Positions 2,442 through 64,000 of a DNA stretch of 64,000 nt are shown here, piece after piece. How positions within the stretch are numbered: position 1 is the first letter of the stretch; each line of letters begins with the position of its first letter. Source of the stretch: a virus; IMG/VR virus record IMGVR_UViG_3300045588_000033, positions 27,511 to 91,510 of that record; one strand, written 5' to 3'. The position numbers and the translations under genes were made by a program. The notes under the pieces are model-generated. The model worked only from the letters and a program-made list of their open reading frames with translations, was not told the DNA's origin and searched no databases.

Positions 2442-2996
2442 ATGGCAACAGATATCCAAATAGTAAAACCGCAATTACCTCAGTATCAACCAGGATTATT
2501 TGCACAAACTGCATTAGGCACTGTAATAACTAATACTATTGCAGAAACTTCTCTTATAGGCCCAGGAGTGGGTACATTATCCGTTCCTGCAAATGGTTTT
2601 AAAGTAGGAGATAGTTTTTCACTTAAGATGTGTGGAAAGTTATCTTGTGCAAACAATGAAACAATACAGGTTAGAATTAAATCTAATGGAGTTGTTATTG
2701 GAGACTTTGGAGTATTTCCAATGAAGATTGCTACAAGTAAGTTTTTTGAACTAATAGCAGACTTCACAGTTACTAAAATTGGTGCAGCAGGTGTTGCAGA
2801 ATTATTTGTCAATGGTCAATATAGTTATAATCACAATGCAGCTGGTGTATTAGATGGAACTAACTTTGCATTAATATCTAATACCGTATTTGATACTACT
2901 ATAAATAATACTCTTACTATTACAGCACAATGGGGATTAGCAAATGCTGCTAATGCTATTCAATCACAAAACTTTGTATTATCTAAAACTTATTAA
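2442..2996 (+). CDS. Putative fibre/decoration protein
   Basis: 184-aa beta-rich ORF; N-terminal TDIQIVKP is shared with the next gene. Confidence 0.55.
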   Translation: MATDIQIVKPQLPQYQPGLFAQTALGTVITNTIAETSLIGPGVGTLSVPANGFKVGDSFSLKMCGKLSCANNETIQVRIKSNGVVIGDFGVFPMKIATSKFFELIADFTVTKIGAAGVAELFVNGQYSYNHNAAGVLDGTNFALISNTVFDTTINNTLTITAQWGLANAANAIQSQNFVLSKTY

Positions 2997-2999
2997 AAT

Positions 3000-4487
3000 A
3001 TGCCTACTGATATTCAAATTGTAAAACCAGATTTAATAATAGAAGGAAATAATATTGCTACTCCTAAGAGGGCTGCATTAAATTTTATAAATGCTACAGT
3101 AACAGATGATGCTATTAATAATCAGACTAATGTTACTATACCACCATCAGGAATCACAATAGGCACAACACCAATCACTTCAGGAGTTGCAGGTCGTGTG
3201 TTGTTTGAGGGTAGTGGGAATGTAGTGCAGGAAGATGCTAACTTTACATACGATGAAACATTAAAAAGATTAACTTTAAAAGCAGTTGGCGCACTATCTA
3301 CCGACATAGCATTCCGCATTAGAAACTCAGCAGATACACTTGACATAATCCGTGCAAATGGAGCAGGGGATGTGTTTGTTGGGTTAGGTGCGGGAAGGGT
3401 TAGTACGGGAAGTGGTAATACAGCTATTGGATTTCAATCTCTTTTTTCAAATACTTCCAGTGGTAGTAACACTGCTATTGGTAATAATTCACTATTGAAT
3501 TCTACAGGCGCTAGTAATACAGCTCTTGGATTTCAATCACTTTATACAAATTCATCAGGAGGAGGAAATGTAGCAATTGGAGCAAACTCACTTTTAAGTA
3601 ATACGACAGGAAACAATAATGTTTCAAATGGTTTTGGATCACTTAATTTTAACACAACAGGGAGTAATAATGTTGCTGATGGTTTTTATGCAGGTCGCTT
3701 CATAGCAGACGGCACAACAGCAAACACTATTACAAATAACTCAATCTACCTAGGCAACAACACTAAAGCCCTTGCAAACAACCAAACAAACCAAATAGTT
3801 ATAGGAGATAGTGCTACGGGTTTAGGTTCAAACACAGCGGTACTTGGAAATGACTCAATTACATTAACTGGGTTAAAAGGTAACGTAGCTATTGGTGCAA
3901 CAAGTGCTAGTGCTAAACTAGACATCAAATCCCAAGGAGCGTTAAGTACGGATGTTGCGTTTAGAGTTAGGAATAGTGCGGATACTTCAAACTTAATGAG
4001 TGTTCAAGGTGATGGAAATGTTAACTTTTTAACTAGGACAAACTTAGGTTTTCAAGGAATGACAACAACGGGCGGAGCATTATTTGTCTACGCTGGTAAT
4101 TCTGCGGATTTCATGTCGAGATGGATAAATACAGTTGGAAATCCTTGTATTGATTTTAGAACAAATGCAGATGGTGGGCAAATAATTTTAAGAAATCATT
4201 TAGGAGTTACTTCACTTACTTTGGACGGTAGATTTTCTAACGCTGTTGATTTTGCAGATAGTAGAGATATCGGATTCGGAACGGGTGGAGGTACTCGAAT
4301 CGGTTACGCAACAAATCAAAAACTTGCATTTTGGAACGCAACACCAATAGTTCAGCCAACAACCGCAGTAACAGCAGCTACTTTAACAAGCAATTTAGGG
4401 ACAATATTAACAGACACAGATACATTTGATGGCTATACAATGAAACAAGTTGTAAAAGCATTAAGAAATATGGGTATATTAGCGTAA
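3000..4487 (+). CDS. Tail fibre with NTAIG (YadA/Hep_Hag-like beta-roll) repeats
   Basis: Tandem ~14-aa repeats GNTAIGFQSL / NTAIGNNSL / NTALGFQSL / NVAIGANSL. Confidence 0.75.
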   Translation: MPTDIQIVKPDLIIEGNNIATPKRAALNFINATVTDDAINNQTNVTIPPSGITIGTTPITSGVAGRVLFEGSGNVVQEDANFTYDETLKRLTLKAVGALSTDIAFRIRNSADTLDIIRANGAGDVFVGLGAGRVSTGSGNTAIGFQSLFSNTSSGSNTAIGNNSLLNSTGASNTALGFQSLYTNSSGGGNVAIGANSLLSNTTGNNNVSNGFGSLNFNTTGSNNVADGFYAGRFIADGTTANTITNNSIYLGNNTKALANNQTNQIVIGDSATGLGSNTAVLGNDSITLTGLKGNVAIGATSASAKLDIKSQGALSTDVAFRVRNSADTSNLMSVQGDGNVNFLTRTNLGFQGMTTTGGALFVYAGNSADFMSRWINTVGNPCIDFRTNADGGQIILRNHLGVTSLTLDGRFSNAVDFADSRDIGFGTGGGTRIGYATNQKLAFWNATPIVQPTTAVTAATLTSNLGTILTDTDTFDGYTMKQVVKALRNMGILA

Positions 4488-45631: not shown

Positions 45632-46381
45632 CTAATTGGTTTTTAATTTTATTTCAATATTAAAATTTGTTTTTCCAGATACTATCATCTTAGAGAAAAA
45701 TTCCCATGCATTTTTTACATTATTAAAAGCAAATTCGCCTTCAGAATAAAAATTAAAATGTTTACCCAAATAATTTGGATTTACATCGAATTTTTTTATA
45801 GAAGTTTTGCTATTAGAATATCTTAATCTTATTCCGTCTTTACTTATACCCTTAATATAACCTCCAGTTAATCTTTGTACGTCTTTTTTAGTAATATTTA
45901 ATTTTTCAGAAGCTTCTTCTTTGTCTTTAAAAGACTTTAAATAATTTCCAAAATAATCATATACTTCGACTGTACAAAAATCAAATTTAGTTTTATACTT
46001 TCCAGCCGCTCTACCATCAATAATTGATTTTGATAATTTTTGCTTACTATATATTGATAAAGTTTTAAGAACAGGATCTAATTGTAAATTAAAATTAGGT
46101 TTTAATGCATCTATGTAATATTTTTCTCTTAAAATTCTAGATTCTGGTGAACAAAATTCTAATATTTCGTATTTAAAACTGTTTATACCGTATTTATTAA
46201 AAGCTTTTTGCATAAAATCATTTGAATGTTTGTTATTCAAAAGTTTTTGCCTATGTTCTAATAATCTATCGTATAAAGTTTTAGAACTACCTACGTATGT
46301 TCTAGAATTACATGTTATCATGTATATCCCAGATTTTTGTCTTAGTTCTTTTGCACTCAATTGAAGAATTGATGTTTTCAT
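45632..46381 (-). CDS. GIY-YIG homing endonuclease (intron-encoded)
   Basis: SGIYMI..YVGSS..R..H..HSN..E..FN motifs; NUMOD-like C-terminal part; ATG at 46381. Confidence 0.9.
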   Translation of the reverse strand: MKTSILQLSAKELRQKSGIYMITCNSRTYVGSSKTLYDRLLEHRQKLLNNKHSNDFMQKAFNKYGINSFKYEILEFCSPESRILREKYYIDALKPNFNLQLDPVLKTLSIYSKQKLSKSIIDGRAAGKYKTKFDFCTVEVYDYFGNYLKSFKDKEEASEKLNITKKDVQRLTGGYIKGISKDGIRLRYSNSKTSIKKFDVNPNYLGKHFNFYSEGEFAFNNVKNAWEFFSKMIVSGKTNFNIEIKLKTN

Positions 46382-46384
46382 ATA

Positions 46385-46392
46385 CAAATATA
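46385..46392 (-). promoter_or_regulatory. TATATTTG -7 element inside the intron, upstream of GIY-YIG
   Basis: TAnnTTTG 3 nt before the HEG ATG. Confidence 0.5.
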
Positions 46393-46421
46393 ATTAAATA
46401 TTTGCTAAAAACTAAATATTA

Positions 46422-46650: not shown

Positions 46651-47832
46651 TTAAAGTTCTAATTTTATTACTTTCCCAGGAAGGGCTTCATTCATACTTG
46701 ATTGTTCAGACAATACCCATAATACTTTCTTTGAAGGCTTTTTATTAGTATAACATTCACCATCAGTGAAATATATTAAACTAGTAAATTGTGTATTTTT
46801 TTCAAAATAATCTAATACGGGGTCAAATTCTGTCCCACCTCTACCAGATATTTTTAATTCAAACTTGCCTTTGTAATCTTCAATACTGTGAATTTCAGTA
46901 TCACATTGAACAATAGTAATCTCTACACCTGCTTTGTAAATATGATATATTTCATTCATAAATTCTCCAAGCTCTTGAGTACTAACAGATCCAGAGGTAT
47001 CAATAGCTAATAGCATCTTTTGTCTCATTTTAATTTTAAGACCAGGATTACCTTCGTATCTTTTATTCTCTTTTCTGCGTATCTTCTTAGTAAATACCTT
47101 TGTGCTAATTCCAGTAAATCTTCTAATATATCCCTTCCAATCAAATTTTGGAGGTAATATTACATCTAATTGAATTAGATCGTTCATCTCACCAGGAACA
47201 ATACCTTGCTTCTTTAAAGTCTGTTCTTTAGCGGTGCCTAAGAGCCTTTGCGTTTGCTTGTCTATTAGCTTTTGCTCTGCCTCAGATAAATCTTCGAACT
47301 CGTCCCATGTGCTATGGTCAGGCAGACCTTCACCGTCACCGTCCATTTGGTCACATAATTTATCAAATGCATCACTGCCACTAGTACCAGTTTGATCTTT
47401 TTTATCCTTAGCTTGCTTAAGCTTGTCATAGTAATATCTACAACCTGCTTTTCTATCTAAATTTAATTCTGGATATTTGTCAATATCAATGCCTCCTGTA
47501 GGTAACCATTCAGGAATAATATATTGATTAATCTCCATATCCATAGCTACATTAGCTAATTGTCTATCACTAAATTTAAATACAGCACTCAAATGGCCAA
47601 AAGCAATATGCAAAAGCTCATGTTTTAGAAGACCTAATCTATGGTCTTCCGATAACTCTTCCCAAAAAGTAGGATTAATGACTAGCTGATAATTTATTCC
47701 TTGTTTACCAACGCCAGCCGTGGGTACTCTTGTGTACCATAATTTATTTAATAAAATGAGAAAGAACCCGTAATAGGGCTCTTTCATCATTAAATCTTTA
47801 CTAGTTTTACTTAATGTGTCCGCTCTATTCAT
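46651..47832 (-). CDS. Metallopeptidase plus vWA domain protein (DUF2201-like), MoxR partner
   Basis: HELLH zinc motif; MIDAS DTSGS..GGT..FTDG. Confidence 0.85.
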   Translation of the reverse strand: MNRADTLSKTSKDLMMKEPYYGFFLILLNKLWYTRVPTAGVGKQGINYQLVINPTFWEELSEDHRLGLLKHELLHIAFGHLSAVFKFSDRQLANVAMDMEINQYIIPEWLPTGGIDIDKYPELNLDRKAGCRYYYDKLKQAKDKKDQTGTSGSDAFDKLCDQMDGDGEGLPDHSTWDEFEDLSEAEQKLIDKQTQRLLGTAKEQTLKKQGIVPGEMNDLIQLDVILPPKFDWKGYIRRFTGISTKVFTKKIRRKENKRYEGNPGLKIKMRQKMLLAIDTSGSVSTQELGEFMNEIYHIYKAGVEITIVQCDTEIHSIEDYKGKFELKISGRGGTEFDPVLDYFEKNTQFTSLIYFTDGECYTNKKPSKKVLWVLSEQSSMNEALPGKVIKLEL

Positions 47833-60775: not shown

Positions 60776-61044
60776 TACTTTTGTTTTAATTGTTCTCCTG
60801 TTAGTATAAAATACAGATTCTGTAACTGGTGTACATATCTAAATAATTCTATGTCAGGTGCTATACCTATATCATCTTCATGTCCCATAATACCAATTGA
60901 GAAGTCATCGCAATATGCCAATAAGAAGTCTTTATGCTTTAACTTATAGTCTACCCCAAAACAATCTTCTGAGTTGTATACTATTTTCTCAAATCCAAAA
61001 CTCAAGAGTAACTCTTCAGTTAAGGGAATATTTTCTTGTTCCAT
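60775..61044 (-). CDS. Hypothetical protein
   Basis: IPLTEELL..FGF..YVHQLQNLYF.LTGE. Confidence 0.6.
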   Translation of the reverse strand: MEQENIPLTEELLLSFGFEKIVYNSEDCFGVDYKLKHKDFLLAYCDDFSIGIMGHEDDIGIAPDIELFRYVHQLQNLYFILTGEQLKQK

Positions 61045-61045
61045 C

Positions 61046-61246
61046 TTATTCTGATTTAATTTTTTCGTTGTAATATTGTTCTGCTTTATTTTCTTTGCTT
61101 TTATCCCATTGGTCGGTCACAAATCCTTTATTAAAAGCATCAATTATCTGTTGCTTCTCCATTGCTTTGGCATGTTCATATTCCGATATTGTAATATTTC
61201 CCTTGTGTTCGTACATTTTATTGTACAACCATTCTATTGCTGTCAT
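61046..61246 (-). CDS. QTAVEW-family small protein
   Basis: MTAIEWL..AKAMEKQQIIDAF..AEQYYNEKIKSE; start 61246 or 61267. Confidence 0.6.
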   Translation of the reverse strand: MTAIEWLYNKMYEHKGNITISEYEHAKAMEKQQIIDAFNKGFVTDQWDKSKENKAEQYYNEKIKSE

Positions 61247-61253
61247 GTTGTCT

Positions 61254-61433
61254 TTATTCAGATTCATTTGTACAAGCTAAAACAGCCATGCCTAACACGA
61301 TACCTATAAAAGATGATATAAGCTTACTTGCAACAGTTTGGTGATCAAATCCCCCCATTATGTACATAGAACATATATGTACTGCTAAAAATGTAACTAA
61401 GAAAGCTACTATATTTTTTGTTAATCTATTCAT
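61254..61433 (-). CDS. Small two-TM membrane protein
   Basis: Start at the junction ATG 61433 (MNRLTKNIVAFLV...). Confidence 0.55.
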   Translation of the reverse strand: MNRLTKNIVAFLVTFLAVHICSMYIMGGFDHQTVASKLISSFIGIVLGMAVLACTNESE

Positions 61434-61434
61434 C

Positions 61435-61572
61435 TTATTCTGATTTAGGTGGAAAATATGTTCCACATTCATTACATAAAAACTCTTCTACTGGTTTTTC
61501 TTTTTTACTCCAATCTAAATTAGCATGAATGTTTTCACACTCACCACAATTAGGACAACATTTTGCTTCCAT
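61435..61572 (-). CDS. Small zinc-ribbon protein (45 aa, not in ORF track)
   Basis: Hand translation MEAKCCPNCGECENIHANLDWSKKEKPVEEFLCNECGTYFPPKSE; bounded by junction motifs. Confidence 0.65.
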   Translation of the reverse strand: MEAKCCPNCGECENIHANLDWSKKEKPVEEFLCNECGTYFPPKSE

Positions 61573-61573
61573 T

Positions 61574-61786
61574 TTATTCTGTTTTAAAAGTTTGTTGTTT
61601 ATCTGCTAAATATTTTTCATGACATCCTTCAATTAGAATGCATACACCTATGCCGATTCCAAAAATACAAGCATATACAATTCCTTGTTTACCTTCATCT
61701 TTATCTAATCTAAAAGATAATATAAGTCCTATACATAATCCTAACATTATTTCACTTACCAAAAATAAAAATTCATAATTTTTCAT
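61574..61786 (-). CDS. Small two-TM membrane protein
   Basis: Start at the junction ATG 61786 (MKNYEFLF...), ends TFKTE. Confidence 0.55.
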   Translation of the reverse strand: MKNYEFLFLVSEIMLGLCIGLILSFRLDKDEGKQGIVYACIFGIGIGVCILIEGCHEKYLADKQQTFKTE

Positions 61787-61787
61787 C

Positions 61788-62009
61788 TTATTCTGATTTA
61801 AAGGTTTCTTCCCAATGTGATTCAAATGTTTGCCAATTATCTTCAGCAATACCCTTACCCTCAAACCTACCTGCTTGATGTGCAGTGTTCCATGTTGTAA
61901 CTATCTGCTCCTTTTCCATTTCTTTGACTTGTTTAAATACTTCTGATAAACTAAATTCTTTATCATCGTAAATAATTTCTTCTAACCACTCTACTGCTGT
62001 TTGTTTCAT
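61788..62009 (-). CDS. QTAVEW-family small protein
   Basis: MKQTAVEWL..KEMEKEQI..ETFKSE. Confidence 0.65.
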   Translation of the reverse strand: MKQTAVEWLEEIIYDDKEFSLSEVFKQVKEMEKEQIVTTWNTAHQAGRFEGKGIAEDNWQTFESHWEETFKSE

Positions 62010-62010
62010 G

Positions 62011-62226
62011 TTACTCTGTTTTAAATGTTTCGTTATAATATTGTTCTGCTAATTTTTTATTGGTATCACTAAAAGATTGTGAATCGAATTCAGACTGCCC
62101 ATTTATATGCGAAATAATTATTTGTTGCTCAAACATTTGTTTAGATTTTTCAATAGCGTGCAAATCTTTAAGCCCAATGCTTTCTTTTAATTCATTTACT
62201 AACCATTCCACTGCTGTTTGTTCCAT
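62011..62226 (-). CDS. QTAVEW-family small protein
   Basis: MEQTAVEWL..KQMFEQQII..AEQYYNETFKTE. Confidence 0.65.
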   Translation of the reverse strand: MEQTAVEWLVNELKESIGLKDLHAIEKSKQMFEQQIIISHINGQSEFDSQSFSDTNKKLAEQYYNETFKTE

Positions 62227-62244
62227 GTTATTTTGTTTTAAAGG

Positions 62245-62631
62245 TTAGTTAGCATATTTCCATTCAAATCCACCTGCTGTACCTTTTTCTTGTTTTAAAA
62301 TAGTAGACATGTTATTTTTTGTAACTCCATTTTTTTCACAAGCGGTTATAATATTTTCATAACTACATATATAAGAGCCATTATAATATTTAGAGACAGG
62401 TTTACAAAATGATTTACTTGGAATCACAGTTACATCACCAATTCTATTAACAATTCTAGCTCCATCAGAATATCTCCTAAATTGTTTATTTATTGATGTT
62501 AAAGTATGTCCAATAATTGTACTGTTGATAGAACCTCTTGGTGCTTTTAATTGTATTTCTAATTCTCTAACTGTATTTACATCAAATACTTCTAATAAGT
62601 GACCTTCAAGGTCATACATTGCTATTTTCAT
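62245..62631 (-). CDS. NUMOD1-like DNA-binding domain protein (two repeats, no nuclease domain seen)
   Basis: IAMYDLEGHLLEVF...; KPVSKYY.G.YI..Y.NI..A...TAGGFEWKY. Confidence 0.65.
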   Translation of the reverse strand: MKIAMYDLEGHLLEVFDVNTVRELEIQLKAPRGSINSTIIGHTLTSINKQFRRYSDGARIVNRIGDVTVIPSKSFCKPVSKYYNGSYICSYENIITACEKNGVTKNNMSTILKQEKGTAGGFEWKYAN

Positions 62632-62632
62632 T

Positions 62633-62857
62633 TTATTTTGTTTTAAAGGTTAATTCTTCTGTTAAAATAGCGTTCATTTCTTTTTGTGATTCAAGTTCGG
62701 CTTCAAGTTGAATGATTCTATCAATATTAAATTCTTTGATTCTTTTTTCATACACTTGAATTTGTGCTTGTTTAGATACTATTATTCGTTTTAAAGCAAA
62801 AAATTGAATTTTCAAGCCTTCATAAGTTGCGTGGGGTTTTGCATTTTCTAATTCCAT
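62633..62857 (-). CDS. Small coiled-coil protein
   Basis: Heptad-like sequence ending LTFKTK. Confidence 0.55.
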   Translation of the reverse strand: MELENAKPHATYEGLKIQFFALKRIIVSKQAQIQVYEKRIKEFNIDRIIQLEAELESQKEMNAILTEELTFKTK

Positions 62858-62858
62858 A

Positions 62859-63077
62859 TTATTTTGATTTAAAATCCTTATTCATGTGTTTAATCAAATA
62901 AAATTCACAATTCCAATCCTTATGTTTGTTCCCATGCCACCCTGCTCTAAAATCATTTTTTCTTTGCTCATCTTCCATTTCTTTGGCTTGTTTAAACAAC
63001 TCTTTAAACTTTTGATTAGTTATTAATTGACCACCTTTGATTTCACCCGCAAACCATTCTACTGCTGTTTGTTCCAT
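62859..63077 (-). CDS. QTAVEW-family small protein
   Basis: Start at the junction ATG 63077: MEQTAVEWF..QAKEMEDEQ..DFKSK. Confidence 0.6.
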   Translation of the reverse strand: MEQTAVEWFAGEIKGGQLITNQKFKELFKQAKEMEDEQRKNDFRAGWHGNKHKDWNCEFYLIKHMNKDFKSK

Positions 63078-63078
63078 C

Positions 63079-63540
63079 TTATTTTTTATTAAATTTTTCG
63101 TTGTAGTATTGTTCTGATGTATTATATTCACCATCCATACCATCAAGATATGCTGTACGTATTATTTCCTTCTCCATTTCTTTGGCTTGTTCATATACTT
63201 TACTTATTTTATCCCATTCGCTTGGGTACAATTCAAGAATGTTATCTAATTCTTCATATAATAATTCTACTGCTGTTTGTTCCAATCCTTTCGTTTCAAT
63301 TTCTTTGCCGTTAAAACCATTATACCACCCACGCATATATTCCGAGTGATTTTGTAGTTTTTCTAATTCTAAAAGATTAATTAATTCTTGCTTAAAACTA
63401 ACCAATCCAATCTTCATTCCATGATGCCTACTCGTTGAAGTTTCATCCCTAACTTTTGATGCTTCAATTCTACACGCTTGAGCAATTTCTATTTGCTCAT
63501 CTATTTTTTCAATTGCTTTTTGTATTACTGTCTTTTCCAT
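63079..63540 (-). CDS. Fusion of a MEKTVIQ module and a QTAVEW-family module
   Basis: Internal LEQTAVELL..QAKEMEKEII..SEQYYNEKFNKK. Confidence 0.6.
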   Translation of the reverse strand: MEKTVIQKAIEKIDEQIEIAQACRIEASKVRDETSTSRHHGMKIGLVSFKQELINLLELEKLQNHSEYMRGWYNGFNGKEIETKGLEQTAVELLYEELDNILELYPSEWDKISKVYEQAKEMEKEIIRTAYLDGMDGEYNTSEQYYNEKFNKK

Positions 63541-63541
63541 C

Positions 63542-63769
63542 TTATTCTGGTTTAGCGTATTGAAGATATTGATAAAATTGATGCTGCTCCCTGGTTAAAT
63601 TTTCATTGTTCCAGTCTTTTGGTTCTACAAAATTATATTGTTTTTTCAAAAATATAATTTGTTTTTCCGAATCTTTTTGTAGTTTCTCTTTTAAAAGAAA
63701 ATACCCTACCGCCCCATAAGATACCATAAGGGCGGTAAGAATAAAATTGATTATTGTTTTATTTGACAT
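63542..63769 (-). CDS. Small single-TM protein
   Basis: Start at the junction ATG 63769 (MSNKTIINFIL...), ends AKPE. Confidence 0.55.
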   Translation of the reverse strand: MSNKTIINFILTALMVSYGAVGYFLLKEKLQKDSEKQIIFLKKQYNFVEPKDWNNENLTREQHQFYQYLQYAKPE

Positions 63770-63770
63770 A

Positions 63771-64000
63771 TTATTTCTTTTTAAATTGTTCAAACCATTG
63801 CTTTGTTGTATCTCCTAAATTAGAAGTTTTATTAGAAGATAAATCATATCTATATTGTTGTAAAAATTTTATAACTTCTTCCTCACTATACATTTTTTCT
63901 TGTTGGTATTTAGCGCCTTGAATAAAAATCTGTCTGTCGTCTTCATTAGAATCTTCCATTGGATTGTAAGAGTCATTAATAAGCCTTGGATACAACCTCA
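63771..64000 (-). CDS. Partial small hypothetical protein
   Basis: GAKYQQEKMYSEEEV..WFEQFKKK; frame probably runs off the window end. Confidence 0.5.
   Translation of the reverse strand, partial: RLYPRLINDSYNPMEDSNEDDRQIFIQGAKYQQEKMYSEEEVIKFLQQYRYDLSSNKTSNLGDTTKQWFEQFKKK

Follow-up and report, generated by a model that had tools for sequence, protein, structure and literature searches.

A perfect 20-bp repeat around a nuclease-less NUMOD-like gene is the most similar pair within a junction family of a phage small-gene array

The perfect 20-bp repeat that brackets the gene of a 128-residue NUMOD-like protein is the most similar pair within a family of recurring gene junctions, and not an isolated repeat. 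The stretch of DNA analyzed here (the window, 64 kb) is the final part of a 91.5-kb linear phage contig from IMG/VR, with an estimated completeness of 69%. As a whole explanation, to which we assign a probability of roughly 0.55, we propose an array of linkers in which an orphan DNA-binding gene arrived as a single cassette. Each linker of approximately 20 bp would combine the stop of the preceding gene with the translation start region of the following gene at a fixed distance. The two copies of the repeat would be the linkers ahead of the 128-aa gene and ahead of the next gene, and the second would be kept intact, although untranslated, since it would drive initiation of the gene at 62011-62226. 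Linkers are the sole sequence common to otherwise unrelated neighbors, from which we infer that they double as crossover points for homologous exchange. By such exchange, related phages would gain, lose and reorder genes one at a time, each accompanied by one linker, much as for the PeSL (promoter-early stem-loop) cassettes of T4-type phages (Arbiol et al. 2010, PMC2839356; Comeau et al. 2014, PMC4122927). Arrival as a 405-bp unit, made of the gene and one linker, is the most likely origin of the 128-aa gene. It would encode the DNA-binding half of a two-gene homing endonuclease of the SegE-type GIY-YIG class, with the partner nuclease missing.

From approximately 58.8 kb to the end of the window the genes in the ORF list are all on the minus strand, small, and packed head to tail. 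The ORF list, a junction scan and alignment together delimit, within this region, an array of small early-region genes, placed head to tail and joined by one junction family (61044-63790, minus strand). On the coding strand the junction reads phenylalanine-lysine-x-x, stop, one base, ATG. From 61.0 to 63.8 kb it recurs at no fewer than nine gene boundaries in a row, nearly all small array genes are preceded by one, and phenylalanine-lysine-(threonine/serine)-(glutamate/lysine) is the C-terminal end of most array proteins. Two weak copies apart, the motif does not occur elsewhere in the 91.5-kb contig. A blastn search of 61000-64000 against 50,697 phage records returned no match. The 128-aa ORF (62245-62631, minus strand) is preceded by a gene for a 74-aa coiled-coil protein (62633-62857, minus strand; 27 relatives), whose core ends in ..ILTEEL and whose last five residues derive from the junction. 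Downstream of the 128-aa ORF comes a 71-aa gene from the family of QTAVEW paralogues (62011-62226, minus strand), where translation would start from the untranslated junction copy.

The repeat, TTATTTTGTTTTAAAGGTTA, is present without mismatch at 62228-62247 and 62633-62652, with 405 bp from copy to copy and the minus-strand ORF 62245-62631 in between; the initial annotation was thus correct in describing a perfect 20-bp repeat that brackets the gene. The reading frames agree with that description as well. The upstream copy (62633-62652, minus strand) encodes the LTFKTK and the stop of the 74-aa gene and would also be the start region of the 128-aa ORF, the ATG of which lies one base past the copy. 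The first three bases of the downstream copy (62228-62247, minus strand) are the TAA of the 128-aa ORF (62245-62247); the other 17 nt are untranslated, intact and directly before the ATG of 62011-62226. The 20-mer contains TAA in all three frames (offsets 0, 7 and 17), so that an upstream gene in any frame would stop inside it; the first of these (offset 0) is found in only five of 17 junctions compared.

A scan for the 20-mer with up to three mismatches gave four sites, compared with 0.11 expected from shuffled sequences, and the two sites outside the flanking pair are neighboring gene junctions, at 61574 and 61788. Over the 20-mer the flanking pair is identical at 20/20 positions vs 17-18/20 for other junction pairs. 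Over the 24 nt before the ATG it is identical at 22/24, and several other pairs reach 19-20/24. The chance that two draws from the junction profile match at 20/20 is P ~1e-5 to 1e-4 per pair, with 45 pairs possible, in an estimate built on 8-15 window junction sequences with pseudocounts. By this estimate the perfect identity appears to be somewhat more than the family consensus predicts, though the margin is not wide. With 17-18/20 being normal between junctions, the 20/20 match could perhaps reflect luck together with selection for a single optimal start region.

The junction has the features of a Shine-Dalgarno-less (SD-less) start region of the kind used in Bacteroidia: four A positions, no SD motif and little structure. 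Measured from the ATG (at 62631 for the 128-aa ORF), it carries A at -3, -6, -12 and -13. These four adenines enhance initiation in Flavobacterium johnsoniae, a non-SD host, as documented by ribosome profiling and reporters (Baez et al. 2019, PMC6847099). This signature extends across the whole phage. In the start-region profile of 64 ORFs that encode 120 aa or more, A reaches its maxima at -14 to -10 (0.73 at -12) and at -3 (0.69), and an SD-like motif precedes one of the 64; this A-rich, SD-less signature across the contig points to a Bacteroidia-type host. Folding of junction RNA gave energies of -0.9 to -5 kcal/mol, in two cases weaker than shuffled sequence (z +1.7 and +1.3) and in the third with z -1.2. 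Judged by its position and by these published determinants, the junction is probably a combined stop and start region. The downstream copy would be intact, though untranslated, because it is the start region of the gene at 62011-62226. Some non-A positions of the junction (T at -16 to -14 and C at -9) are conserved beyond the generic start-region profile. As this exceeds what a start region needs, the junctions must either share ancestry through recombination or carry an additional signal specific to the phage.

Comparison with related phages reveals that the type of junction belongs to the array and not to the individual genes. A second junction type, with a lysine-glutamine-glutamine-glutamate-glutamine end (..KQQEQ) and an ATGA overlap, occurs in 7-10 copies per locus in four related loci (L011, L012, L018 and L020), where it joins unrelated small genes. 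It is found also in L035, and it closes the relatives of the 74-aa coiled-coil gene in L035 and L074-L078. This type likewise has A at -3, -6, -12 and -13. The orthologues of the 128-aa gene in L011, L018 and L020 end with a TAA of their own, after which the junction of the resident type stands intact and untranslated; in L033 another gene likewise ends before an intact untranslated junction. The tail of the 74-aa gene after its conserved ..ILTEEL core switches with the junction type of the resident phage, and variation inside the junction has no bias to synonymous changes. These comparisons show the junction to be kept or homogenized at the level of nucleic acid within each phage. The conservation of untranslated copies, together with tails that match the junction type, excludes the role of a peptide tag, in line with the earlier proposal that the junction acts at the DNA/RNA level. 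In L073 and L082 the point at which the type-1 junction joins relatives of the 74-aa gene lies five codons downstream of that in the window (tail ..ELLNKTFKSE), which suggests that gene and junction were joined independently.

Mosaicism at the scale of single genes is evident when the 58-64 kb region of the window is compared by blastn with 80 fetched loci: the matching blocks are one gene long and end at junctions. The upstream 74-aa gene matches L033 over 62873-62629 (86%) and L065 over 62809-62626 (92%), while the block shared by the 128-aa gene and L004 spans 62644-62228. In none of the 27 relatives of the upstream gene (three viral and 24 metagenome loci) does the 128-aa gene follow, and the downstream neighbors in these relatives nearly all differ. 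The 127-aa genes that follow the upstream-gene relatives in L070, L080, L081 and L083 were considered as orthologues of the 128-aa gene and rejected, as they encode unrelated proteins. In L033 the upstream gene is followed by a relative of the gene 63771-63995, which in the window is four genes away. In L065 the identity of 92% extends up to the ATG, and a gene of the QTAVEW family follows after a single junction. This architecture is empty-site-like and presents the same family as 62011-62226, and it is not the exact allele. Of the empty site for which the initial annotation had proposed a search, only a similar arrangement was thereby found; the exact allele (upstream gene, one junction, orthologue of 62011-62226) was not found among the loci compared, and an exact degenerate pattern for the junction and the start of gene 62011-62226 had zero matches in a scan over IMG/VR. 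Within the QTAVEW family, the gene L036:2987-3205 resembles window 62240-62117 in its 5' part (83%) and window 63200-63063 in its 3' part (91%); by this alignment it is evidently a recombinant of two QTAVEW paralogues from the window.

The bases that vary within the linker provide insights on how the pair arose. Both copies of the repeat have A at -10 and -7, where the ends of the upstream gene in L033 and L065 have T at -10 and G or T at -7. The leader with the A variants also flanks the orthologues of the 128-aa gene in L004, L005-8 and L010. Arrival as a 405-bp unit would leave both flanks with shared variants that are missing from the orthologous upstream-gene ends; the distribution is consistent with a gene that came in carrying its own linker, or with subsequent conversion between the copies. 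In the insert-free relatives L033 and L065, the upstream gene natively carries the 5' part of the upstream copy, and in L019 the 128-aa gene natively carries the 5' part of its copy. Part of the 20-bp identity is, on these alignments, apparently a coincidence of two lineages of one motif. The flanking start regions are the best pair of the locus for 8 of 14 orthologues, compared with 31 of 141 other tightly packed genes, an excess that is only suggestive, as the loci are not independent. A length of 20 bp is short for homologous recombination, which counts against linker exchange. The integration of a recent single cassette with duplication of the crossover site, as had been suggested, thus retains its cassette nature. 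Its reading as the footprint of a fresh scar is unneeded: that argument is weak because the second copy, as start region of the next gene, would be needed for translation of that gene and because every array gene is bracketed likewise.

The gene between the copies encodes a protein without a nuclease domain, which can be assigned from homologue profiles, an AlphaFold2 (AF2) model and fold matches. The window protein itself has no Pfam match at E<=1, and it matches phrog_20162 (E 3.5e-6) over residues 72-127. In the 48 aligned members of its family (35-92% identical), PF22083 (I-HmuI NUMOD-like) is matched by 37 and PF07453 (NUMOD1) by 21, in support of the assignment as a NUMOD1-like gene in the initial annotation. 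The closest homologues are 76-92% identical to the window protein. The family comprises 78 clusters of stand-alone proteins of 123-146 aa with an invariant N-terminus, and its 12 invariant and 14 nearly invariant positions are all retained in the window copy. No longer or fused relatives were found, which is weak evidence. The AF2 model (pLDDT 90.9) predicts two beta-beta-helix-turn-helix-beta modules that fill the whole protein, and the N-terminal half aligns with the C-terminal half (hhalign 85%), so that the modules are homologous to each other. Superimposition with VIA-align places the C-terminal module on residues 117-172 of I-HmuI (1u3e_M; Z 8.2, rmsd 2.4 Å over 56 residues). Further fold matches are a Paulinella DNA-binding protein (8b6e_B, Z 7.8) and the helix-turn-helix of I-TevI (1t2t_A, Z 5.9), with the next match at Z 4.1. 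The best Foldseek match to I-HmuI reaches E 0.03 only, and a sequence profile search of solved structures gave none at E<=1. A nuclease catalytic domain is absent from the 128 residues, which are taken up by the two NUMOD-like modules. The proposal of a captured nuclease-less fragment of a homing endonuclease holds as to the absent nuclease domain; the protein is, by its conservation, evidently a member of a conserved stand-alone family and not a random fragment. No second copy of the gene is present in the genome, where the only other NUMOD-like match, a marginal one, is to residues 144-178 of ORF 45635-46393 (minus strand; E 0.07). Several endonuclease genes occur in the replication module, among them ORF 46651-47832 (minus strand, 393 aa), which matches PHROG 1314 (annotated as 'HNH endonuclease') with E 1.9e-62.

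A potential partner is encoded next to relatives of the 128-aa gene. Upstream of the orthologue, 14 of 25 loci contain a 141-aa gene whose product is a SegE-type GIY-YIG domain and nothing else (PF19835, E 3e-21). The two genes adjoin directly in L010, L015-17, L022, L026 and L027 (about 2560-3390), and at L021:1713-2590 the SegE-type gene is separated from the NUMOD-only gene by approximately 60 bp. A LAGLIDADG gene intervenes between the two in L005-8, and other inserts are found in L004 and L028. In the tree of the NUMOD-only proteins, SegE-linked copies appear in every major clade with unlinked copies interspersed, and the window copy groups with the SegE-linked L004 and L005/8 with a clade support of 95/95. 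This distribution argues that the two-gene unit is probably ancestral and that the DNA-binding gene has been separated several times. No fused SegE+NUMOD protein was found, the search with the SegE-type gene giving one unrelated fusion only; a limited literature search yielded no published description of such a two-gene SegE-type form. The pair of SegE-type gene and NUMOD-only gene looks like a two-gene homing endonuclease, and if so it would be a form of GIY-YIG homing endonuclease whose DNA-binding half may travel alone. We regard as quite unlikely the stricter view that NUMOD-only proteins serve a two-component SegE-type homing endonuclease as its free DNA-binding subunits and that the orphans are kept for an action independent of the nuclease. 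One possibility for such an action is occupancy of the target site, which would block cleavage by the enzyme of a co-infecting phage; another is binding to array junctions, which would steer the exchange of cassettes.

Several other explanations for the repeat were weighed against the linker array with arrival of a single cassette. The copies might be identical with no recombination event at all, as two instances of one optimal start region at the top of the range of similarity, within an old gene order. The values of 17-18/20 and 19-20/24 for other junction pairs, the 5' halves that are native to their own genes elsewhere, and the fit of the A positions to the known initiation signature are all as this account would predict. 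It explains less well that identity extends to the non-A positions (T -16 to -14, C -9), which the generic profile does not favor, that two variants are common to both copies and absent from the gene ends in L033 and L065, and that the neighbors of both genes differ in all sampled relatives. With the per-pair chance of a 20/20 match from the profile (given above) also against it, we hold this account to be somewhat unlikely. A different role for the junction, chiefly as a signal for transcription or RNA processing (a phage-polymerase promoter or a cleavage site for a phage RNase), would make the repeat two such signals. In favor of this role, the exact motif is restricted to the early array and its conservation exceeds the needs of a generic start region, and every phage lineage uses a junction type of its own, as a phage-specific factor would predict; moreover, early promoters are still undefined in the crAss-like model phage phi14:2 (bioRxiv 10.1101/2020.03.07.982082). 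Against this role, sigma-70-like promoters in 58-64 kb are not in excess (25 sites vs 33.9 expected) and none lies at a junction, and the Bacteroidetes -33/-7 promoter pattern occurs at two sites in the window vs 4.65 expected, with none in the array. No terminator hairpin exists on the coding strand, the single terminator-like site in 6 kb being on the strand opposite to the array genes, and no Rfam family is present in 58-64 kb. The constant spacing from the ATG and the stop codon contained in the junction suit translation better, which makes a chiefly transcriptional or processing signal decidedly unlikely.

Homing or transposition driven by a nuclease at the junction is another route by which the gene could have come to lie between two copies. 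The NUMOD-like protein would bind the junction, a nuclease would act in trans (the SegE-type partner or another endonuclease of the phage), and the repeat would be a target-site duplication or a product of repair. The linkage of the stand-alone GIY-YIG gene in 14 of 25 loci, the flanks of the orthologues, which are unusually alike, and the presence of other endonuclease genes such as 46651-47832 are compatible with such an event. However, a SegE homologue is absent from the 91.5-kb contig (69% complete by estimate), the same element brackets every other array gene where no such protein is encoded, and the array ORF list contains no transposase or integrase and no terminal inverted repeats were seen. 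Target-site duplications are also not a product of homing, in which repair of a double-strand break makes none. A target-site duplication as the main cause was rejected, since all array genes are bracketed alike, and we strongly doubt that a nuclease placed the gene. The remaining account, in which the junction is a C-terminal peptide tag on the array proteins (a signal for degradation, sorting or assembly), takes its appeal from the phenylalanine-lysine-(threonine/serine)-(glutamate/lysine) end that most of them share. The motif is nevertheless intact where it is untranslated (in the window and in L011, L018, L020 and L033), its changes are not biased to synonymous ones, and one protein has different tails in different phages; such a tag is scarcely credible.

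The linker array with single-cassette arrival has its closest counterpart in the PeSLs. These, too, are short regulatory elements that recur in a hyperplastic region, where they separate small genes of unknown function, and each occupies the interval between the stop codon of one gene and the start codon of the next. PeSL elements bound indels or replacements between related phages, as the junctions do here; a gene between two copies is the expected product of such exchange, and a circle of the gene with one copy is the predicted intermediate. In contrast to a PeSL, the window junction has no sigma-70 promoter and no stem-loop terminator, extends over approximately 20 bp, overlaps the coding end of the upstream gene, and has a regulatory role that would appear to be translational (an SD-less start region). 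The hosts differ as well, the window phage probably infecting Bacteroidia and the PeSL phages Proteobacteria. The junction is an analogue of the PeSL and not a member, since the defining promoter and stem-loop are missing. With regard to integron cassettes and transposons with target-site duplication, the junction is unstructured, and no integrase or transposase is evident in the array ORF list. The 'Kozak-like' SD-less start regions of Bacteroidia (PMC6847099) share with the junction the four A positions, the low structure and the lack of an SD motif, and the signature is genome-wide in the phage. Unlike these start regions, the window reuses one sequence at approximately nine consecutive genes with non-A positions fixed too, and its junction includes the upstream stop and differs as a unit between phage lineages. 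A phage of an SD-less host may, on this reading, build a plug-and-play gene array from one short element that would end the previous gene, start the next and supply homology for single-gene swaps, with the last residues of the proteins as a by-product. It would give T4 PeSL shuffling a concrete and testable counterpart among phages of a very different group. For annotation, arrays of this kind caution against equating common C-terminal tails and flanking repeats with peptide tags or transposon scars.

The 128-aa protein resembles I-HmuI, I-TevI and other NUMOD1-bearing homing endonucleases in the fold of its C-terminal module and in the matches of its homologues to PF22083 and PF07453, and its relatives recall T4 SegE through the adjoining GIY-YIG gene. 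It differs from the NUMOD1-bearing enzymes in that the polypeptide has no catalytic domain, the two NUMOD-like modules being the whole protein; the nuclease is a separate gene where present and is missing on the window contig. In T4, genes for free-standing homing endonucleases have promoters embedded in them that act as signals for expression of the next gene downstream (review PMC2988022). A selfish insert between phage genes that would leave downstream expression unbroken is common to both cases. What differs in the window is that a duplicate of the linker stands after the inserted gene.
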